From the NCBI GenBank assembly GCA_016186795.1, contig JACPKY010000001.1, positions 65,357-129,356 of the forward strand: a stretch of 64,000 bases of DNA, given 5' to 3'. Of the stretch, positions 284-42,632 are shown one piece after another (position 1 is the stretch's first letter; each line of letters opens with the position of its first letter). The position numbers were made by a program, and so were the translations under genes. A model generated the notes under the pieces. The model was given only the letters and a program-made list of their open reading frames with translations. It was not told the origin of the DNA and searched no databases. This DNA is from Candidatus Gottesmanbacteria bacterium. Its GTDB lineage: Bacteria > Patescibacteriota > Microgenomatia > 2-02-FULL-39-11.

Positions 284-829
284 TTATTGTGCTCCGACTC
301 CATATCCTACAATCTGTAAATACCTGTTATCATCTGGATATTTAATTACTGCTTGACCGCTTTGTTTTGCTTTGAATGTGATCTTGGCAAGCATCATCGA
401 GCCTACCGGAAGAGTATTTGTTGCTCCTTTTACTACAAGGGCAACTCGGACAAAGTTATAGGTATTATCAAAACTCCCTTCTTTCATAACAACCGGCGCT
501 TCGGTAAACGCATAGGACGGATTTACTGTTTGAACTGCCGGAACAACATTTGTTGCCATAAGTTTCGCCTTATCATAAAGAATAGTCACATCCGCTCCAG
601 AAAGTTTTGCGCTTGAATCATTCATCTGAATCGTCGCAACAACGTCAAAATACTCTCCTGCATCGGGATTCGTATTCCCGGTAGATAAAAGAAGGTTAGC
701 ATTTCCTTGGAGTGCTCGAGGCCGAATATCTTGACCTTTCCGCGTCAGGTATAGAGTCACGGGAAGAGCAAAAAGAAGGAAAAGAAGGAAAAAGATAATG
801 AATTTTGAACGATTATTCATAGGTTGCAT
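284..829 (-). CDS. Hypothetical secreted/membrane-anchored protein (181 aa)
   Basis: N-terminal hydrophobic signal/TM (FIIFFLLFLLFALPVTLYL). It sits immediately downstream of, and overlaps, the subtilisin gene on the same strand. No recognisable catalytic motif. Confidence 0.5.
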   Translation of the reverse strand: MQPMNNRSKFIIFFLLFLLFALPVTLYLTRKGQDIRPRALQGNANLLLSTGNTNPDAGEYFDVVATIQMNDSSAKLSGADVTILYDKAKLMATNVVPAVQTVNPSYAFTEAPVVMKEGSFDNTYNFVRVALVVKGATNTLPVGSMMLAKITFKAKQSGQAVIKYPDDNRYLQIVGYGVGAQ

Positions 830-3371
830 ACAACGCTTGAATTTCTGTTGCCGTCAAAACTTTGTTGTACAATCGAACCTCATCAATTCGCCCTTTGAAT
901 GTTTTCCTCTCTGCATATAAATTCCCTATCGCTGCTTTTATATTACTATCATCCAGTCGGCTCCCGACACCAGTTGATTTCTCATTATGTTCATTTGCGG
1001 GAGCACCATTTTTATAAAACTTTACACCACTTGGATTTACAGACCCGTTCCATGTCACACAGACAAACTGCCACTGATCAAGTGCAATGAGATTATTCGG
1101 TCCAGATACTCGAAGATCCGATCCCGAGTAATTCACGCCGAACCGAAGTGTTTTATCAACGGTTCCCGCATTGTCATTTTCCAGTGAAAACCACAGTCTT
1201 GGACCTTTCGCATATATTCTTCCTTTGCCATCCTCACCAAAACTTTTCGGAAAAATCCATGCACATATGGAAAGTGCTGCAAGATTATTCAAAGATACAT
1301 CCGGATTCATGTACACTTTATCGTCGTCTCCATCAAACCTCCTCGCATTTCCAACTTTCCCGGGTTGAATTGATGTGCCTTCCGCAATCCCAGGATTTCT
1401 TCCTCTTTGATCAGCAACCGTTGTTCCAGATGTCTCATCCATCTTCCAATAACTGACAAGACCAGGAGAAACAGAAGGTGTTGGCGTTGGACTCCGTTGA
1501 GGAGTAGGAGTTGCTGTTGGATTCCCTCCTGGGGTAGGTGTAGACGTCGGATTCCCTCCTGGGGTAGGTGTTGCTGTTGGAACAGGACCGGTTGGAATTA
1601 CTTTTTTTCGTCTCCAAATTTCATAATCACTTAAATCAACAAAGTACGTTGATGAATTTCCTTCCACACATGAAAAATTGGCATTACTTTGAGAAGAGGG
1701 ACTCACAAATGTATTGTATTGCTGTACCCACAGTGCATAGTCCGCCTCATTTATAACGTTGTCACAATTCGCATCACCACTATTTTTTTGCGAACAATTC
1801 GCAGAAGGCGATGGACAATATGGACCTTGTGGATAGGGCGATGGAGGTATTTTGAGTAATTTTGGTGCTCCAGTTGTGGGATACGGTGTCATTGTTGGAA
1901 TTGTCGTAGGAGTTGGGGTTACTGTTGCTTCTGGCTGGTTTGATGGTGATGGAGTTGCGGTTGCCGCAACAGATGGCGTTCCTGTTAGTAAACTTTGGAG
2001 AGCAACAAGTGAGTTTACTCCGCCATGCGTACTTGCATTTCCTCCCCACGAGGAAACTCCAGCAGATTCAATAATTTGTCGAACAGCAGAATTTGAAAGT
2101 CCAGAATTTTTGGCAAGAATGAGAGCGGCAAGGGCTGCAACATGAGGAGATGCCTGTGACGTCCCTGCCATATAGGCATACTGACTATTCTTATAAAGAG
2201 AGACAATACACATGGCAACCTCACTATCCGGACAATCGTTCGGATTTGCATATCCAGTGCAACAATCGCCTCCTGGAGCTGCAACATCAACCCAATTTAC
2301 ATTTCCGCTATTGTGCTCAGAATATGAGGCGAGTTGGTTTGTCTTGGTAAGAGCAGCAACTGATATGACATTTGGGAAAGCTGCCGGATACATATTGGGG
2401 TTTGTCTCATAACCGGTTGGGGTAGGGTTTGTCCCATAAAAAATTGGGCAACTATTCGTTCCTCCGCAATTTCCTGCTGCTGCAACAACAACAATTCCCG
2501 CATTCCAGGCGCGATTTACTGCATCCCTTAGATCATTTTTTTCTGTTGCGTCAATATTTCCTTCATTCACTCCTAAACTCATATTGATGACATCAACATT
2601 TTGGGAAATAGCCCAATCGATACCACGGATAAGCATTGCCGTTGTTCCGGCTCCTTGGTAATTGAGAACTTTTGCCGAAACAATTTTTACTCCCCATCCG
2701 ACACTTGCTACACCTACTGAATTATTGGTCACTGCTCCAATAATTCCTGCCGCGTGGCTCCCATGTCCATGATCGTCAGCTCCTCCTGAGACACAACTTC
2801 CTGAAAGACAGTTCACACTTGTAACAATTTTCCCAGATAAATCGGGGTGATTTGCATCAACGCCGGTATCAAGAATTGCTACTTTAATCCCAGACGTTGC
2901 CGTATTAATTGCATTTCCCGAATTTCCCAAAATATCCCATCCCGACTGATTACCAGGGGTTGGATCGGCAACGCGAAAGGTAGAAAGATTCCATTGATCG
3001 GCAAACCCTGGATCGTTGGCCGTTGCCAGTGCATAGACGGTTGCCGGAATATATGCTGCCTCAACGTTCGGATTTGCCTTCACCTGAATGAGCGCTTGAT
3101 TTGCATCTCCAGTTACTCGGTAAACCAAGGCGTTTGTATTGGGGAGTCCACCCTCAAGGGACGTACCGGGCATAGAGGAAGACACTGAAAGGATCGATTC
3201 ACTTGCGGGAGCACTTTTTAATTTCACGACGATTTGCGTCGGTACGTCAGACGATTGGGCGATTTCTGACCGAGGAACAAAATCCTGTGCCGAAACGGTG
3301 AATCTCCCGATTGTTATAAGGAGCACCAATGTAAAAACACCCACAACTAATGTGGTGAGCTTTTTGGGCAT
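813..3371 (-). CDS. Secreted subtilisin-like serine protease (peptidase S8) with Pro/Thr linkers, a single dockerin-like Ca-binding repeat and a C-terminal LamG/ConA-like lectin domain
   Basis: Signal peptide (LVVGVFTLVLLITIG). S8 catalytic triad motifs: VAILDTGVDANHPDL (Asp), HGHGSHAAGIIGA (His), AAAGN (oxyanion Asn), GTSQASPHVAALAALIL (Ser). Tandem PTPTPGGNPT linkers. NCDNVINEADYALWVQQY resembles one dockerin repeat. C-terminal WKMDETSGTTVAD...RFDGDDDKV...RIDEVRLYNKVLTATEI matches the LamG_3/ConA-like fold. Confidence 0.85.
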   Translation of the reverse strand: MPKKLTTLVVGVFTLVLLITIGRFTVSAQDFVPRSEIAQSSDVPTQIVVKLKSAPASESILSVSSSMPGTSLEGGLPNTNALVYRVTGDANQALIQVKANPNVEAAYIPATVYALATANDPGFADQWNLSTFRVADPTPGNQSGWDILGNSGNAINTATSGIKVAILDTGVDANHPDLSGKIVTSVNCLSGSCVSGGADDHGHGSHAAGIIGAVTNNSVGVASVGWGVKIVSAKVLNYQGAGTTAMLIRGIDWAISQNVDVINMSLGVNEGNIDATEKNDLRDAVNRAWNAGIVVVAAAGNCGGTNSCPIFYGTNPTPTGYETNPNMYPAAFPNVISVAALTKTNQLASYSEHNSGNVNWVDVAAPGGDCCTGYANPNDCPDSEVAMCIVSLYKNSQYAYMAGTSQASPHVAALAALILAKNSGLSNSAVRQIIESAGVSSWGGNASTHGGVNSLVALQSLLTGTPSVAATATPSPSNQPEATVTPTPTTIPTMTPYPTTGAPKLLKIPPSPYPQGPYCPSPSANCSQKNSGDANCDNVINEADYALWVQQYNTFVSPSSQSNANFSCVEGNSSTYFVDLSDYEIWRRKKVIPTGPVPTATPTPGGNPTSTPTPGGNPTATPTPQRSPTPTPSVSPGLVSYWKMDETSGTTVADQRGRNPGIAEGTSIQPGKVGNARRFDGDDDKVYMNPDVSLNNLAALSICAWIFPKSFGEDGKGRIYAKGPRLWFSLENDNAGTVDKTLRFGVNYSGSDLRVSGPNNLIALDQWQFVCVTWNGSVNPSGVKFYKNGAPANEHNEKSTGVGSRLDDSNIKAAIGNLYAERKTFKGRIDEVRLYNKVLTATEIQALYATYE
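1490..1580. repeat. Imperfect ~30-bp tandem repeats encoding the PT-rich linker of the S8 protease
   Basis: Units gattccctcctggggtaggtgt[agacgtcg/tgctgttg] at 1520-1549 and 1550-1579, with a partial upstream copy. They encode PTSTPTPGGNPT repeats on the minus strand. Confidence 0.7.
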
Positions 3372-3435
3372 GTCCGTGTATTTATTCCAGTGTTGCAGAA
3401 AAAGAAAGTGGTGTCAATACAAAGATGCTAAGAAG

Positions 3436-6006
3436 TCATCTGCCAAATCGAGATCGGATCTCTTGGGTAGAAAGTACCCCACGATACATTTGCACTTCGT
3501 CAAGCGCCCCATCATAATAAAGTCCTTCAGGACCAATGGCACCAAAATAGAGATTCCTTGCTGAACTGTACTTTATTTCACCAGAAACTGATTTTGATGC
3601 TTTCTTTGCTCCATCGATATACAAAGCCATTTCTCCACTTCCGTAGGTACCAACTACTGAGTGCCATGTACCATCTAGAATAAGATTTTGAGGAAGTGAA
3701 AGTGAATCAGAGGTAATTTGCCCCTTCCCTACCAAAAAGTAAACAGTGTCTCGATACGTTCGAAATGTAATACCACTATAGGAAACAATATCGGTATTGG
3801 TGAAAAAATATTGACTACTACTGAATCCACCCAAATATTTTTGCGGAACTTGGGTATAATCAAATCCTGAAGGCCCAGGTGGTGGAACACCTTTTACCCA
3901 AAATCCAACAGTGAATGATTGCGGCTTGAGATTCTGGTTCATTGGAATTTCCACATATGACTTTTTGTTCCTGTCAAACACCCGCGCCAATCCCTCTTTT
4001 CCATTGGTAATTGTTGTTTGATAGGCAGTTCCATCATGATTTTTTTTGCTATCGCTTACGTTGTTTCCGGAATTTTCATCCATCTTCCAATCAGCTAAAA
4101 ATGTAGTATTTGCCGAAAGTGTAGGAGTTGGAGTACGGTTAGCCTGAATTGGTGTAGGTGTCTTTGTTGGTTGACCGGGGATAAGTGTCGGAGTCGGTGT
4201 TTTTGTCGGTTGTCCAGGTATAGTGGGTGTGGGAGTTCGTGTGGGAGTAGAAGGCTGCGTCGGTGTTGGCGTCTTGGAAGGATGTGGTGTTTGAGTGGTC
4301 GGAGTAGGAGTCGGGTTACCGCACTGGGGAGTTTTCCTGGCAACATGAGTACATGTTTGGAGTCCAGGTGGCTGCTGTACTATTTCGGTTGCCTCAACAA
4401 CTTTCCGCACCTGGTCACATGTTGATCCTGTTTTATAAAGATCATTGCAAGAACGCTTGAGGGCCTCTGCCATGTCTCGGAAGTTTGAACCTGCAGATAA
4501 ATATTTGTCCATCGCCCTATAAACAATTTGTATGGCTTTTTGTCTCTCAATACCTTGCATCGTGCACCCATTAAACGAACCTCCTTCTACGAGAAGATAG
4601 TACGTCTTATTCATAACTCCACTATTTGTATGCACCCCACCCGCATCGCTTGTACCACAATAGTAATAATTCGAATAGAGCCTGTCTGGATCGGATTTTT
4701 TGGGCGGATCATCCATGTATCGAAAAGGAGCATTGGGAATACTAGTATTTTCTCCTATCATCCAGTTTCCATCCATTTCCGATCCCATAATATCTGCCCA
4801 TGACTCATCAAGAGCTCCGGATTGGTTTTTGTAGACAAAATTCGATGTATAATCCGTCACTCCGTGCCCGAATTCATGACCAATAACATCGTACGCTACC
4901 ATTCCATTACAAAGCCTCATATGATCTCCATACCACCAAGCGTTTGGACAATACGGTGTAGTAGAGTCAACATGTACCCATGCCCGTTGTTTGGCTCCAT
5001 GATTATCGTAACTGTTCCGATGAAGTGTCTTGGAAACATAGTTGTATACGCTCCCCAATACGTCATATGAACCATCGACATCTGCATCGCCGTATGCAGG
5101 CTGTCCTTCTGTTCGCACAATTGGACACCCTCCGACGTTACAGTCTTTTATCTCCCGATTTGCCTCTTTCAGAAGAGATTCTTCGAAAATAACTGTTCCA
5201 TTTGACCTCTCAATAAAATATTTCATGGCAACTTGGGGATTTTCCGACTCTTCTTCGACGAAAACAGCAAACGTACTGTAGTTCGTCTCATCGTCAGAAA
5301 CGCCCAAGATACTTAAGTTGACAATGTATGGTTCTACTTTCATGACGCGGAAACCTTGAGCATTAGGATAGTCACTTTTTGCTTTCCCAAGAGCAATTCC
5401 TCTCGCCTGATCCTCAGAAATTGTTTGGACAGTTACTTCTGTACTTGTAGTGAGTGTTGCATCAATGGCATAAATCTCATTCCCATGACGCTCATGAAGA
5501 ATCATCTGCGCTGCGTATACTGGAGTTCCTCCAATTGTTTGCGTGTAAAAATAATGCTCCCCTTGCTTTTCAGGTGGTACCTCGGAGGTAGAATCTTCAG
5601 AATCGAGAATGACCCGAGAAAGTGTTGAGGAGGAAAAAAACCCGTCTGGAACAATCTTTACGAAGTCATCTCCACCCACTACCCTTCCCATAATTCCAAC
5701 CGTATTCCTGCCACTGGGAGCAGAATACGAAGGTGGGGAATTTAAAAATTCTGCAATCCCTGCTGCCCCTGACGATTGTGTCGTATAGAGATTTCCCTCC
5801 TCTGAATACAGAGAGTAACGCATTACTTTTGTTCCTGACGAAAAATACGAACCTCCAGAAAGGGCCGACGTATTGAGTGTTTTTAATGTTTGGGCTTTTC
5901 CCTGAAAGTAGGAACTGGTAGAAACGACCAATCCTGCGGTGATCAGGTTAAGGAGAAATAGAAGAAGAATCTTTGTGTTAAAAAGGTGATATCGACTTTT
6001 TTTCAT
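3436..6006 (-). CDS. Secreted thermolysin-like zinc metalloprotease (peptidase M4) with Pro/Thr linker and C-terminal LamG/ConA-like lectin domain
   Basis: Signal peptide/TM (ILLLFLLNLITAGLVV). M4 zinc-binding signature VIGHEFGHGVTDYTSNFVYKNQSGALDESWADIMG (HExxH plus ExxxD). Long PTPTxT linker (NPTPTPTTQTPHPSKTPTPT...). C-terminal WKMDENSGNNVSD...WHSVVGTYGSGEMALYIDG...LDEVQMYRGVLSTQEI module is paralogous to the C-terminus of the S8 protease. Confidence 0.8.
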   Translation of the reverse strand: MKKSRYHLFNTKILLLFLLNLITAGLVVSTSSYFQGKAQTLKTLNTSALSGGSYFSSGTKVMRYSLYSEEGNLYTTQSSGAAGIAEFLNSPPSYSAPSGRNTVGIMGRVVGGDDFVKIVPDGFFSSSTLSRVILDSEDSTSEVPPEKQGEHYFYTQTIGGTPVYAAQMILHERHGNEIYAIDATLTTSTEVTVQTISEDQARGIALGKAKSDYPNAQGFRVMKVEPYIVNLSILGVSDDETNYSTFAVFVEEESENPQVAMKYFIERSNGTVIFEESLLKEANREIKDCNVGGCPIVRTEGQPAYGDADVDGSYDVLGSVYNYVSKTLHRNSYDNHGAKQRAWVHVDSTTPYCPNAWWYGDHMRLCNGMVAYDVIGHEFGHGVTDYTSNFVYKNQSGALDESWADIMGSEMDGNWMIGENTSIPNAPFRYMDDPPKKSDPDRLYSNYYYCGTSDAGGVHTNSGVMNKTYYLLVEGGSFNGCTMQGIERQKAIQIVYRAMDKYLSAGSNFRDMAEALKRSCNDLYKTGSTCDQVRKVVEATEIVQQPPGLQTCTHVARKTPQCGNPTPTPTTQTPHPSKTPTPTQPSTPTRTPTPTIPGQPTKTPTPTLIPGQPTKTPTPIQANRTPTPTLSANTTFLADWKMDENSGNNVSDSKKNHDGTAYQTTITNGKEGLARVFDRNKKSYVEIPMNQNLKPQSFTVGFWVKGVPPPGPSGFDYTQVPQKYLGGFSSSQYFFTNTDIVSYSGITFRTYRDTVYFLVGKGQITSDSLSLPQNLILDGTWHSVVGTYGSGEMALYIDGAKKASKSVSGEIKYSSARNLYFGAIGPEGLYYDGALDEVQMYRGVLSTQEIRSRFGR

Positions 6007-6011
6007 AAAAC

Positions 6012-6659
6012 CTAATACTCAAACGAGGAAAGCATTGGTTGGTAGATAAACTCAGGACTGCCTTTTTTGTGAGAGATGAGGTAGACATAATTTTCCGACC
6101 AAAAAGCAGTTACTTCAAGAGGGTATTGAAAATACTCAGAAATTCCACCAAGGGTATAAACTTGTTTATTCGATACTGTTGATGCTGATGGTGTCGACAC
6201 ATGATAGAGAGCAAACGACCGTCTGAGTGGAGCAACCTCCTCACCAGTTGAGGTGCTCGTATTTCCTTCTAACCACGAAGATAAATCCTGGTAAGTTCCA
6301 CGATAGTAAGATGAGAGTCGAACCGAACCATCTTGTGAAGAGAGATCTTTCGGTATAAATTCAAGTATTTTATAGGCATAATTATTTTTCTCACTTCCAA
6401 TAGCGACTGGAATAACGTCATGCGTTGCTGGATACCTTAGTGAAAATTCGAGATCAGGATCATGATAGGTTAACCACGAAGTGTTTGGTTTCGGTTGAAT
6501 ATAAATGGCAAATCGTGGTCCCTCATACATTGTCAGCGTTGCTTCAAACAGTCGGAACCACACGATGACAAGAATAGCCATCAGAAGTATTCCAAGTGAG
6601 AGAACAATGGTAAAATCTGAAATTTTATTTGCGAAAAAATTCCTCATACTAAGAGTCAA
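6012..6659 (-). CDS. Hypothetical membrane-anchored protein (215 aa)
   Basis: N-terminal TM helix (FTIVLSLGILLMAILVIVWF). Shares a short SL(R/K)YP motif with the adjacent upstream paralog. No known domain recognised. Confidence 0.45.
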   Translation of the reverse strand: MTLSMRNFFANKISDFTIVLSLGILLMAILVIVWFRLFEATLTMYEGPRFAIYIQPKPNTSWLTYHDPDLEFSLRYPATHDVIPVAIGSEKNNYAYKILEFIPKDLSSQDGSVRLSSYYRGTYQDLSSWLEGNTSTSTGEEVAPLRRSFALYHVSTPSASTVSNKQVYTLGGISEYFQYPLEVTAFWSENYVYLISHKKGSPEFIYQPMLSSFEY

Positions 6660-7261
6660 TCAAAAGAAAGAGAAGAAATCATTTGGTGATAACTACTTCC
6701 AATTTTCTGGGCCTGTTGGGCGACAAAAATTGCATATTTATCAGTCAGAAAAAGTGTTGCCACTAAAGGATCGGCGATATCCGGATCGCCTATTGTAAAC
6801 TTGGCCGCCTCTTTGTCGTTTACAGTGCGATAAATAACGTTGTTGACTTGATATAACAAGAATTTCCCTGAGGACAAATCGCCAGAAGAAGTTGTATTTT
6901 CGACAATCCAATCTGATAGATTCTTACTATTTCTCTTTGGTAAAACCGTAACTAGAATTGGACTTTGCGCATCTTTTCCAGAAGGAATAAATGAAAGTGC
7001 GAGTAAAAAATCTCTACTTGTTGCAGTTAAATCTTCCATCGAATAAGTCAGTGGATATTTCAGTGATAATCCGAGATCTTCATTCGTATAGGATTGCTCA
7101 GTTCCCGATGTGGGATTTATTTCCGCTGGCCACTCAGATGGAGAAAGCCGGTCTGTTTTAACTAGTCTTACCAAAAAAAAGACAGCTATAAGAAAAACAA
7201 GAACTAACAGTGCAACAAGAATGTGATAAATATTTTTAATCATAAATAGCTCCCAAAACAT
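6656..7261 (-). CDS. Hypothetical membrane-anchored protein (201 aa), likely paralog of 6012-6659
   Basis: N-terminal TM helix (ILVALLVLVFLIAVFFLV). Similar length and architecture to the downstream gene, with a 4-nt overlap suggesting co-transcription. Confidence 0.45.
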   Translation of the reverse strand: MFWELFMIKNIYHILVALLVLVFLIAVFFLVRLVKTDRLSPSEWPAEINPTSGTEQSYTNEDLGLSLKYPLTYSMEDLTATSRDFLLALSFIPSGKDAQSPILVTVLPKRNSKNLSDWIVENTTSSGDLSSGKFLLYQVNNVIYRTVNDKEAAKFTIGDPDIADPLVATLFLTDKYAIFVAQQAQKIGSSYHQMISSLSFD

Positions 7262-9310
7262 TTAACATCCACCACCACATTTACACTGACCATTCGGGCA
7301 ACATACCGGATTATTATTCTCGCAAGGATAGCTATCACAACTGCCTGGATTGAAATTACATCCACCACCACCATCACCGGTACAACGTCCGCAGCAACCG
7401 CCATTACAGCCATAACCTGGCTCTTTATTACAACACTGTTCTGGACTTGAACAGCCTGAATGGCCATTGGGAACGCAGTAGGGCGGTTCTGTAGGTTCAG
7501 CTTTTTTTCCGCCGACGCAGTCATACCCCCATGTTTTGCTGGCATCAACGTACACACAGTAAACAGTTCCATCGGGGCATTCTGGCTTATCACCGCTACA
7601 TTTACTCTCATCAATCACTCGACAGATTGGTTCCCACGTATCATCTTCTTTCTGTGCACAGAGGATTGTTCCGGTGGAAGGACACGAAGGAGCAGTTTTC
7701 CCTTCACATTTATCCGCGTTCGGATCTACATCACATACGTCATCATTCCATTCCCACTTATCTTCCTCATCTTCTCCAACATTGATACACTCTTTGGCTT
7801 CCTCACAGGGTTTTTCCACATCCTTACACTCCTCTCCGTCGCTACTTACCGGATAACAATTTAATTTATATTTTCCGGAATCTTCCGAATCCTCTTCACA
7901 TTTGGTAGAATATTTTTTCCCGTCATCTGGACAATCTGCAGTCTGTCCCTCACATTTGTCTTTCGTAGTTGGAGGTGAAGTTGAGGCGGCAACACATGCT
8001 CCGGCAACACATGTTCGTTTGGGATCGTATGAGGCGCAATCTTCTCCAGTATCTTGCCATTTATAGGAAGTTTTTGTGTCATCGGGATCTGTATCAACAC
8101 ATGCTTGGGGATTCTTTGAACTAGGTGAACATCTCCTCTCGTTATTCGCAACTGCTACCTGATCACATTCGCTCTTAGTACTGTCTCCGCATGTGGCGTC
8201 TTTATCTGCTGCTGGTTGTATACAGTATGGTCCGTTGCATGAAACCTTGTCCTTTTTATAGCGGTGACTACTCGTATCACATTCCCAGTATCCACTTCGA
8301 TCACCCGTACAGGTATTGACACTACATGATGCTGGACTTTGAGAGAATGGCACGCACCCGGTTCCCTCAACACAATCCTCTTCGGAACCACAATCTTTCT
8401 TGGTGAGAGTTTTTCCATCGCTACTGCAGGAAACTTGGCGCTTTTTCCTCTGTCCCATGTCCTGGCAGGTAATCCCATTATTTTTGGCTTCATAGGTACA
8501 AAGCGTATCATCACATTTGCCGGTGGATTGGTTACATACTTTTCCATTAAGACAACCGTTGGGATCGGCAACCCACTGATTGCCGCTACTGCAGTTGTAC
8601 AATTTTCCATTAAAACATGCGGTGGTGTCATTGTCTGAATCACATGCCTTCTCCTTTTTTGGTTTACATTCGGCCTTGTCTGTACAATACTGGCTGTCTG
8701 CATCACACGGCGGATTAATATCGATCCAATTAGTCGAGTATTTGGGGCACTTTGATCGATAAATAACATTGTCCACCGGAGTGCAGTCATACAACTCTTC
8801 GGTGTTATTCCCATCGCACCCATCCGTCCCCAATGCACTTATATACTGCGCTTTCCCTGCTGCGGCAAGCTGATTATTGGCACAGAGTTGATTGCAGGCA
8901 ATTTTGTCATCAAGACTATCACTGTAAAACTGGCACGTCGACATCTGGTTGGTAAATAAATCTCGTTCGCAATATCCGTTCGTATTACAAACAAGGCATT
9001 GCCGAACCAAACTTGCCCCAGGTTGTTCAAGCTGCGTATCATCTCCAATCCCAATCCCCAGAAACGGTCCTTCAAAAATTGCTCTGGGGTTCATTGTAAA
9101 CACTCGTACAGTCATTGATCCGGCGTAAAAAGAGGCAAGGAGTGTTACTAAAACAAGAAGGAGAAGAAGAATCAGGGGAAACCGATGGTTTGACTCCAGA
9201 TGATGTTTCATCTGGTTCCATCGGGAAGACTTTTTCACTTGCATAGAAAACAGAGTGCTTTTACATGCACCCCTTTCTTCTAGTAAATGCTTTTTCCTTA
9301 GTCTTGTCAA
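7262..9310 (-). CDS. Large secreted, very cysteine-rich acidic protein (682 aa; roughly 90 Cys by eye)
   Basis: N-terminal TM/signal (FPLILLLLLVLVTLLASFYAG; alternative internal starts at MQVKK or MKHHLE are possible). The remainder is D/E/K/C-rich with dense CxxxC/CxC spacing. It ends in CCNKEPGYGCNGGCCGRCTGDGGGGCNFNPGSCDSYPCENNNPVCCPNGQCKCGGGC. No enzymatic motif. Confidence 0.6.
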   Translation of the reverse strand: MTRLRKKHLLEERGACKSTLFSMQVKKSSRWNQMKHHLESNHRFPLILLLLLVLVTLLASFYAGSMTVRVFTMNPRAIFEGPFLGIGIGDDTQLEQPGASLVRQCLVCNTNGYCERDLFTNQMSTCQFYSDSLDDKIACNQLCANNQLAAAGKAQYISALGTDGCDGNNTEELYDCTPVDNVIYRSKCPKYSTNWIDINPPCDADSQYCTDKAECKPKKEKACDSDNDTTACFNGKLYNCSSGNQWVADPNGCLNGKVCNQSTGKCDDTLCTYEAKNNGITCQDMGQRKKRQVSCSSDGKTLTKKDCGSEEDCVEGTGCVPFSQSPASCSVNTCTGDRSGYWECDTSSHRYKKDKVSCNGPYCIQPAADKDATCGDSTKSECDQVAVANNERRCSPSSKNPQACVDTDPDDTKTSYKWQDTGEDCASYDPKRTCVAGACVAASTSPPTTKDKCEGQTADCPDDGKKYSTKCEEDSEDSGKYKLNCYPVSSDGEECKDVEKPCEEAKECINVGEDEEDKWEWNDDVCDVDPNADKCEGKTAPSCPSTGTILCAQKEDDTWEPICRVIDESKCSGDKPECPDGTVYCVYVDASKTWGYDCVGGKKAEPTEPPYCVPNGHSGCSSPEQCCNKEPGYGCNGGCCGRCTGDGGGGCNFNPGSCDSYPCENNNPVCCPNGQCKCGGGC

Positions 9311-42081: not shown

Positions 42082-42590
42082 GTACGTTGATAAGTGTTCA
42101 CATGCAGCACTTCCTTCCTGTTTCTTGATTGAAGGTATGAAACACCTGAAGCTTGGTAATGTAGAAAAGGGGAAAGTTAACTTGGCTGTCTATCAAGGCA
42201 GGTTCCAAATATTATTTTGCAAATATCTAAAACTCCTGATTCCGCTGGTACAAGCTGGCTTACAGAAGGCCAATAAACCAGCGGAACCAAGAGTCTTAGT
42301 TCTGTAATTTGCTTGTTTTTTAAAGTGCTATTTTTCTAGAATCATTTTATCAAAAAAGCAGATGCAGTCAAGTAGTTCTGTGATATTTCTTCATAAATAG
42401 AAAAATGAGGCTAGATAAAAGTACTTTTCATTTACGTGTTCTCCCTACATATGTGCCGGAAGAACCTATTGCTAAAGTTGAACCCTTATGATATAAATAC
42501 CTTTATCCAAAGACAGTAGGCAACCATAAGACCTACCGAGGAAAAATTAGTATCTAGTATTTGGTATCAAGTATTTAGAAGATTAATTTA

Positions 42591-42613
42591 CCTCGGAAAT
42601 CCGAGGTTTTTTG
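42591..42613 (+). terminator. Hairpin plus T-run immediately upstream of rplJ (leader attenuator or terminator)
   Basis: cctcggaaatccgaggttttttg: stem CCTCGG/CCGAGG, loop AAAT, then T6. It ends 20 nt before the rplJ start. Confidence 0.4.
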
Positions 42614-42632
42614 TTATTTGTTTTCTGAAACT

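Follow-up and report, generated by a model that had tools for sequence, protein, structure and literature searches.

Positions 284-6006 of a 64-kb stretch of DNA (the window) from an uncultured, groundwater-type bacterium of the candidate phyla radiation (CPR), Candidatus Gottesmanbacteria, hold three closely packed minus-strand genes, which encode a thermolysin-family (M4) metallopeptidase, a subtilisin (S8) and a membrane-anchored protein of 181 amino acids with a single cohesin domain. The reading that we favour, at slightly better than even likelihood, has the subtilisin displayed on the cell surface as cargo of a small cohesin-dockerin cassette, which is conserved in Gottesmanbacteria and is of a non-cellulosomal kind. 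The CPR group is widely regarded as symbiotic. A first-pass annotation of this DNA, whose two protease open reading frames (ORFs) were both found on the minus strand where it had placed them, described two secreted proteases with one shared lectin module; it overlooked the cohesin gene, with which the picture shifts from 'delivery' to 'tethered display'. Taken alone, two LamG-tailed proteases as first described are an ordinary finding. The source genome was searched over the window and ~10 kb past its left edge (L001).

A cohesin gene at the end of a dockerin-bearing subtilisin gene

The subtilisin gene (813-3371) encodes 852 residues arranged as signal peptide, N-terminal propeptide, catalytic domain, Pro/Thr-rich (PT) linker, dockerin variant, second PT linker and C-terminal LamG_3 domain, and an identical protein is listed at NCBI as 'S8 family serine peptidase [Candidatus Gottesmanbacteria bacterium]' (P0001). 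Read by eye, the first 29 residues (3285-3371) form a predicted Sec signal peptide with a ...FTVSA/QD cut, and the hydrophobic N terminus with its final A-Q is conserved in an alignment of the window protein with homologous CPR subtilisins (A1). The catalytic domain (residues 160-437; 2061-2894) matches PF00082 Peptidase_S8 at 6.9e-53 (180.3 bits, cut-off 21.8), and the catalytic triad, D168 (in DTG), H203 (in HGHGSH) and S405 (in GTSQASP), is invariant in A1 together with the oxyanion residue N301. From sequence reading, a first PT linker (residues 461-507; 1851-1991) connects the catalytic domain to the dockerin variant (residues 508-592; 1596-1850), which a second linker (residues 593-637; 1461-1595) joins to the LamG_3 domain (PF13385; residues 638-852; 816-1460).

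The dockerin variant starts with a PPxPYPxGPYCPx5C lead-in, followed by a canonical first calcium-binding loop and helix (GDANCDNVINEADYALW) in which D533, N535, D537, N541 and D544 take the canonical positions. The second segment, NANFSC...VDLSDYEIWRR, keeps positions 1, 3, 9 and 12 of the loop (N563, N565, D579 and D582), has Ser at position 5 and contains an insertion of ~9 residues that folds as a hairpin in the structural model. Four cysteines (C519, C526, C536 and C568) are near-invariant, a pattern that suggests two disulfides without counterpart in canonical dockerins. When the alignment of the module (A2) was used as a profile against the sequences of the Protein Data Bank (PDB), 25 of the 25 best matches were dockerins, with 2y3n_B on top (E 2.5e-6), and EF-hand proteins appeared at E>1 only. 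In A1 the same stretch aligns with the canonical dockerin that Pfam calls in P0018, and the orthologous module of L017 reaches 23.1 bits against Dockerin_1, above the cut-off of 22.9. The dockerin-like calcium-binding repeat that the first-pass annotation had seen on the subtilisin is thus borne out at the profile level by solved dockerins and by an orthologue that passes Pfam. Judged by these comparisons, the module is a variant of the canonical dockerin, conserved across CPR subtilisins.

The gene for the 181-residue protein (284-829) overlaps the end of the subtilisin gene, its start lying 17 nt inside the subtilisin stop, or 8 nt with the second ATG taken as the start (ATGCAACCTATGAATAA), and its NCBI entry reads 'hypothetical protein HYW55_00305'. 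The protein matches Pfam Cohesin (PF00963) at 1.4e-6 with 29.0 bits, against a cut-off of 24.1, and its orthologues in L014 and L017 likewise score above the Pfam cut-off. The AlphaFold2 (AF2) model, with a predicted local distance difference test score (pLDDT) of 80.7, consists of a single transmembrane (TM) helix (residues 6-30; 740-814) followed by a beta-sandwich (residues ~44-176; 302-700). A Foldseek search of the PDB with this model returned cohesins for 47 of the 50 top matches, in an unbroken run over ranks 1-47, with probability 1.00 and E values of 2e-5 to 1e-3. A profile of the family gave three matches among PDB sequences, which were weak (E 0.15-0.29) and all of which were cohesins from cohesin-dockerin complexes. 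Given the Pfam match above cut-off, the match to the nine-stranded cohesin fold and the PDB matches of the profile, we conclude that the 181-residue ORF is a cohesin. The family is small, with 9 clusters in the protein database, and was found in 4 of ~185,000 species genomes, two of which are named Gottesmanbacteria.

Directly after the TM helix of the cohesin protein lies the motif QDIRPRA (residues 33-39; 713-733), which in the form Q-D/E-I-R-P-R-A is invariant in 9 of the 9 family members aligned (A3). It is echoed as QQQDLRKQA in a 487-residue scaffold-like protein of the same locus and matched no known motif; a role in processing, anchoring or recognition is possible.

Conservation and further components of the cassette

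The gene order M4-S8-cohesin was also found in four independent metagenome assemblies. In eight of the eight lineages compared (window/L001, L005/6, L007/15, L010-12, L013, L014, L016 and L017), a subtilisin gene with the dockerin module lies upstream of a cohesin gene on the same strand, with one cohesin-like gene between the two in L017. The distance between subtilisin and cohesin genes runs from -17 to +43 nt where it was measured (L001, L005, L007, L010 and L013), and the cohesins are 34-75% identical across lineages. The subtilisins of L007, L008 and L010 stop exactly at the dockerin (...FVDLNDFEIWRKNKSP, then the stop codon), those of L013 and several homologues continue into a Cys-rich or SdrD-B tail, and LamG follows the dockerin only in the window lineage and its sister lineage. 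Because L007, L008 and L010 are tail-less, we take a dockerin-bearing subtilisin followed by a cohesin to be the ancestral unit, to which LamG was added later at a variable slot.

Such a module could alternatively be a mere Ca2+ stabiliser of the subtilisin, with the downstream beta-sandwich protein functionally unrelated to it. Subtilisins commonly bind Ca2+ for stability, and the window module both falls under the Pfam cut-off and has an altered second loop. We nevertheless consider this explanation very unlikely, since the two genes lie next to each other, or in L017 one gene apart, in all eight lineages at cohesin identities of 34-75%, the same module terminates another protein of the locus that is no protease, P0018 and L017 have canonical dockerins at the corresponding place, and the partner protein has a cohesin fold.

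Downstream of the cohesin gene, beyond the left edge of the window, the cassette continues with genes for proteins of 753, 487 and 199 residues (L001 9174-13600). The C terminus of the 753-residue protein aligned with the dockerin profile (hhalign 94.8%, E 4.9e-8); this protein also has two internal repeats of ~200 residues, whose repeated domain is without a Pfam match, and long PT linkers. The 487-residue protein combines a TM helix, a cohesin-like N terminus (93%), a PT stretch and a C-terminal Dockerin_1 match at 21.6 bits. The 199-residue protein has a TM segment and a cohesin-like domain (86% to the cohesin profile in hhalign), and its direct BLASTP comparison with the 181-residue cohesin is near uninformative (E 0.011).

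Related cassettes contain further binding modules. L014 4916-9706 encodes an 887-residue PA14+LamG_3 protein and a 686-residue Cohesin+LamG_3+Dockerin_1 protein, and L017 6603-9437 encodes a CBM96 protein with a dockerin module; in these two lineages binding modules appear to move among members of one assembly. The metagenome-assembled genomes behind L014 and L015 (CAYIFB010000025.1 and CAYGXQ010000008.1) are labelled 'uncultured Gammaproteobacteria bacterium', a label that looks doubtful, the other named relatives being Gottesmanbacteria or Roizmanbacteria. Scans of the cassette proteins detected no glycoside hydrolase domain; the cargo is made up of S8 peptidase and of CBM, LamG or PA14 proteins, and each cohesin protein has a single cohesin. 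Since neither dockerin-bearing glycoside hydrolases nor a multi-cohesin scaffoldin were seen in these scans, the cassette, as far as its domains tell, resembles cellulosome-type display and fails the strict definition of a cellulosome.

The M4 metallopeptidase and the two LamG tails

The M4 gene (3436-6006) lies on the same strand as the subtilisin gene, from which it is separated by an intergenic gap of 64 nt; promoter and terminator scans were non-discriminating as to co-transcription of the two. Its product of 856 residues comprises a signal or anchor sequence, an FTP-type propeptide region, a catalytic domain, a PT linker and a LamG_3 domain, and is without a dockerin module. The catalytic region (residues 307-535; 4402-5088) matches PF01447 Peptidase_M4 (9.6e-13, 49.3 bits) and PF02868 Peptidase_M4_C (2.1e-35, 122.5 bits). 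The zinc site is intact, with HEFGH at residues 377-381 and the downstream Glu, E401, in GALDESWAD, and H459 completes the motif residues of the region. An identical protein is listed at NCBI as 'M4 family metallopeptidase [Candidatus Gottesmanbacteria bacterium]' (P0121), and the sister-lineage orthologues P0122 and P0123 (74-75% identity) also end in LamG; the next-closest relatives carry Dockerin_1 or SdrD_B at the LamG position. Among the recovered lineages the M4 gene is present only in that of the window and in L006. The subtilisin-LamG genes of L006 (1-3438) and L005 (1-2090) are near-identical, and the upstream neighbour is M4-LamG in the former and a PIN_3 gene with a small partner gene in the latter, so the adjacency of M4 and subtilisin varies between close strains.

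Both proteins share the architecture that had been assigned to them, with hydrophobic N termini, catalytic domains, PT-rich linkers and LamG tails, as seen by Pfam and sequence reading. The further claim that tandem DNA repeats encode the linkers holds for the second subtilisin linker, in which lies the one genuine tandem repeat that the DNA of the region has (1476-1581; 30-nt period, 3.5 copies, 76% matches, encoding TPTPGGNPT[SA]). It does not extend to the M4 linker (residues 551-632; 4111-4356), where the peptide IPGQPTKTPTP occurs twice, yet Tandem Repeats Finder and repeat searches detected no tandem repeat in the DNA.

Each tail matches Laminin_G_3 (PF13385) well above the cut-off of 27.6 bits and over nearly the full profile, as the first-pass annotation had expected: the subtilisin tail at 3.9e-22 and 79.5 bits (residues 680-845, profile positions 1-151 of 151), and the M4 tail, which spans residues 633-856 (3439-4110), at 1e-19 and 71.6 bits (residues 681-850, profile positions 3-150 of 151). 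The proposed LamG/ConA-like fold is likewise upheld, by Pfam for both tails and by modelling for that of the subtilisin: in the AF2 model of subtilisin residues 505-852 the tail is a two-sheet jelly roll of high confidence (pLDDT 80-97), whose Foldseek matches in the PDB, at E 6e-10 to 2e-8, are the HCN domains of tetanus and botulinum neurotoxins (TeNT and BoNT), domain 4 of AbnA (5hon), a SAP-like pentraxin and PAPP-A (7ufg). On the model, the LamG/ConA assignment of the subtilisin tail is secure. At the sequence level, the subtilisin tail matched 5hon weakly (E 0.0023), and the M4 tail gave weak matches to laminin alpha-1 LG and pappalysin-2 (8sl1). The best fold matches of the subtilisin tail, at E 6e-10 to 1e-9, are domain 4 of the Geobacillus stearothermophilus GH43 arabinanase AbnA (5hon/5hp6) and clostridial HCN (5n0b and 1a8d), with 17-22% identity over ~200-230 columns and unrelated parent proteins. 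The AbnA domain was solved with a bound ligand and HCN is without an agreed one, and for this reason the fold leaves the ligand of the subtilisin tail unfixed. In NCBIfam, NF052521 ('TafC family fimbrial protein', cut-off 410) gave weak domain-level matches to the subtilisin tail (34.2 bits) and the M4 tail (18.5 bits), a hint that a family of fimbrial proteins makes use of this jelly roll too; the only other NCBIfam signal was a weak domain-level match to mycosin.

The first-pass annotation had taken the two tails for one shared, paralogous module. Their C termini are significantly similar (BLASTP E=1e-18, 30% identity over 276 columns, low-complexity linker included), also when the LamG domains are compared alone (phmmer E ~1e-9, 33 bits), and in a global alignment 63 of the 199 aligned positions are identical (32%). 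The motifs WKMDE.SG, R.FD and DEV..Y..L...EI are present in both, as had been reported. These similarities, the membership of both tails in PF13385, the adjacency of the genes on one strand with a 64-nt gap, which is conserved in the sister lineage L006, and the CPR affiliation of the organism would fit a single LamG module that was duplicated or shuffled onto both proteases for coordinated delivery to one glycan surface, such as the envelope of a host. ConA-like lectins have also been discussed as attachment factors of Patescibacteria, for which they are regarded as typical surface modules (PMC12911398).

Comparison with LamG domains from elsewhere speaks against this explanation, which we regard as unlikely. 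In an exhaustive search the subtilisin tail matched 55,890 cluster representatives at E<=1e-3, and 1,642 remained at E<=1e-30. We rescored, domain by domain, 153 proteins retrieved with this tail as query, and used the same set for the M4 tail. Against the subtilisin tail, 148 of the 153 proteins outscored the M4 tail (33 bits), with a median of 75 bits and 168 bits for the best non-orthologue; against the M4 tail, which scores 318 bits to its orthologue P0122, 26 of the 153 outscored the subtilisin tail. By this set, each tail is thus nearer to LamG domains found on unrelated proteins than to the tail beside it, and the idea of one paralogous module was not supported. The best foreign matches came from Wolfebacteria, Moranbacteria and other bacteria, as surface proteins with several LamG domains, and from an M14 carboxypeptidase with two LamG_3 domains. 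Since all of these best foreign sequences contain the block WK.DE.SG..., FDG.DD and IDEVR.YN..L...EI, which recurs in dozens of foreign sequences, the conserved block that the tails have in common is the consensus of the PF13385 family.

The distribution of the tails points the same way. Among close relatives of the two proteases, LamG occurs only in the window proteins and their sister-lineage orthologues (for the subtilisin, P0002, at 65% identity); the next subtilisin relatives lack a tail or have a Cys-rich or SdrD-B one. L005 is without an upstream M4 gene although its subtilisin is near-identical to that of L006. A search for the module elsewhere found no recurrence in the 64-kb window or in the 10 kb beyond its left edge. 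Because the closest subtilisin and M4 relatives lack LamG and the scores favour foreign domains, the tails are best described, on sequence comparison, as separate acquisitions from different LamG_3 subfamilies and not as duplicates of one module. The subtilisin tail belongs to a large, well-populated subfamily and the M4 tail to a divergent one, and their pairing would be a convergent decoration with a very common module.

The M4 tail further differs from that of the subtilisin by an insertion of ~20 residues and by FDRNKK at the site of the acidic loop FDGDDD. As this putative binding loop differs, a common ligand of the two tails is not implied, and the loops suggest different binding sites. 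A targeting or binding role for the LamG tails is plausible by analogy, because orthologous cassettes carry PA14, CBM96 and further LamG_3 modules. Two other roles were weighed. The tails might be retention modules that attach to the envelope of the producer itself, to its wall polysaccharide or S-layer glycan, and in the M4 protein they would be the sole anchor. The nearest non-LamG relatives of the M4 protein, P0124 and P0127, carry a dockerin, as if LamG had replaced anchoring, and in L014 a LamG_3 domain sits within a scaffold-like protein with cohesin and dockerin; against this, a second self-anchor would be redundant on a subtilisin that probably has one in its dockerin and the adjacent cohesin, and the subfamily of the subtilisin tail spans many phyla with different envelopes. 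We give self-retention only a small chance.

It is similarly improbable that the tails lack any role in surface targeting and are instead protein-recognition exosites, or extensions that are cleaved off or serve only folding or secretion. C-terminal processing is common in secreted thermolysin-like and subtilisin-like proteases, the structural neighbours of the tail include the LamG-like module of PAPP-A and pentraxins, and the slot after the dockerin holds unrelated tails (Cys-rich or SdrD-B) in relatives. However, conservation of the tails is close to that of the dockerin: identity to the sister lineage is 63% and 67% for the LamG tails of the subtilisin and the M4 protein, 64% for the subtilisin dockerin, 71% and 91% for the respective catalytic domains and 46% for the M4 linker. 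Long flexible PT linkers, typical of independent binding modules, set the tails apart, and cassettes of relatives carry the recognised carbohydrate-binding modules PA14 and CBM96.

Proposed mechanism and its place among known systems

The identities of the domains, the order of the genes and the conservation of that order are results of the analysis, from which we infer the following steps for the display cassette. The subtilisin, as its signal peptide suggests, would be exported by Sec as a pre-pro-enzyme and matured outside the cell. There its cysteine-stabilised dockerin would bind the single cohesin of the 181-residue protein, probably with Ca2+, a tethering suggested by what the domains are and by the invariant linkage of the two genes. 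The N-terminal helix would hold the cohesin in the membrane and thereby keep the protease on the surface of the producer, and the near-overlap of the two genes suggests that their expression is coupled. On the two PT linkers, ~45 residues each, both the catalytic domain and, distal to it, the LamG_3 domain could reach outward, where LamG_3 would bind a ligand, most likely a glycan and possibly a protein, and so hold the tethered protease on a polymer or a foreign cell surface; this step is suggested by the glycan-binding modules of orthologous cassettes and the conservation of the tail. Given the further dockerin-bearing (753 and 487 residues) and cohesin-like (487 and 199 residues) neighbours, several components probably assemble. 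The M4 protein, without a dockerin, would be released or retained only through its own LamG domain, as a recent, lineage-specific addition.

Several observations weigh against the display reading. The window dockerin on its own scores 13.6 bits against Dockerin_1 (PF00404), under the Pfam cut-off of 22.9, and its part of the AF2 model, a helix-hairpin-helix, is of moderate confidence (pLDDT 57-85). The Ser and the hairpin insertion in loop 2 mean that Ca2+ binding and binding mode may differ from those of canonical dockerins. The cohesin domain begins ~10 residues past the TM helix, which places it near the membrane, and access of the dockerin to it through the wall is assumed. The locus holds three cohesin-like and three dockerin-like modules, and adjacency is the sole argument for pairing the subtilisin with the 181-residue protein. 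The structural neighbours of the LamG tail are mixed: some bind sugars (AbnA domain 4), some bind proteins or lipids, and some are domains without an assigned role. Finally, the M4 protein, lacking a dockerin, is linked to the cassette by an adjacency that is itself variable (L005).

We also entertain, at a low likelihood, an extension of the display reading in which the cassette is a contact organelle of an episymbiotic CPR bacterium: membrane cohesins would display the protease and interchangeable LamG, PA14 and CBM96 modules for host glycans, the protease would digest host S-layer or envelope proteins for peptides, and the LamG-tagged M4 protein would act as a released helper. If this were true, the module that varies after the dockerin would act as a determinant of host range.

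S8 peptidases are documented as dockerin-bearing components of cellulosomes, as are cohesin/dockerin pairs outside cellulosomes (PMC12484212, PMC2930009), the latter surveyed by Peer et al. 2009, as cited in PMC2930009. We compared the cassette with the cellulosomal S8 peptidases and serpins of Clostridia, the dockerin-peptidases of Ruminococcus flavefaciens and the non-cellulosomal pairs of Peer et al. 2009. It shares with these systems a cohesin on an anchoring protein, a dockerin on an enzyme, with an apparent duplication of the calcium-binding loop and helix, PT-type linkers, carbohydrate-binding modules in the assembly and an S8 peptidase that bears the dockerin. Unlike them, it shows no dockerin-bearing glycoside hydrolase, its anchor is a bare N-terminal TM helix in place of SLH or sortase anchoring, its dockerin has a hairpin insertion in loop 2 and four conserved cysteines, and its host is a small-genome CPR bacterium. 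In contrast to a multi-cohesin scaffoldin, cohesin and cargo genes stand here one-to-one, adjacent or overlapping.

Peptidases with LamG_3 domains are recurrent, as in P0311 (M14 with two LamG_3 domains), P0164 (M4 with LamG_3, from Ardenticatenia) and Flavobacterium columnare C6N29_05315, which combines S8, CUB and Laminin_G_3 (PMC9936825). The window tails belong to the same Pfam family as these and as the multi-LamG proteins of Wolfebacteria and Moranbacteria, at full coverage and with the hallmark motifs, and share with the peptidases the C-terminal placement behind a linker. In the subtilisin, by contrast with these, LamG follows a dockerin within a cohesin-linked cassette, and among close relatives of the two proteases the fusion is restricted to this lineage and its sister. 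Pappalysins (PAPP-A and PAPP-A2) are also proteases fused to a LamG-type jelly roll; they differ in being eukaryotic metzincins and not M4 or S8 enzymes, in having LamG at the N terminus and in lacking cohesin and dockerin. In a cultivated Saccharibacterium, a protein with a dockerin domain proved essential (PMC10633639), and searches of the literature library found no paper linking Gottesmanbacteria with dockerin.

Elsewhere in the window, two paralogous proteins with N-terminal TM segments (215 and 201 residues; 27% identity, E 3e-9) are encoded on the minus strand directly upstream of the M4 gene (6012-7261); they show a weak, sub-threshold PsbP_2 match and are syntenic in L001, L002 and L004. 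Next to them on the same strand, 7262-9310 encodes a very Cys-rich, secreted-looking protein of 682 residues with CxxC and CxC patterns that ends in ...CKCGGGC and is without a Pfam match; the upstream position of its gene is conserved in metagenome contigs. The segment 40130-41733, just upstream of a ribosomal L10 leader (42489-42621), has a low GC content (33% vs ~42%) and encodes an IS1595-family transposase (PF12762 7e-35, zinc ribbon) and a small gene pair, whose 77-residue member is a weak match to HicA toxin; it is probably a mobile-element insertion.

What appears to be new, judging from the sequences, is that a CPR lineage has a putative display cassette in which a single TM-anchored cohesin, a protease as cargo, a modified dockerin and interchangeable lectin modules come together. 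The public annotation of the 181-residue protein is corrected from 'hypothetical protein' to cohesin, and the cellulosome field gains a putatively cysteine-stabilised, insertion-bearing dockerin variant that is proposed to pair one-to-one with a TM-anchored cohesin and to carry a protease. How CPR bacteria, or Patescibacteria, attach to and feed on other cells is little understood outside Saccharibacteria, and a compact, conserved cassette in which a protease would be tethered and lectin-like modules exchanged offers a concrete hypothesis for Gottesmanbacteria.

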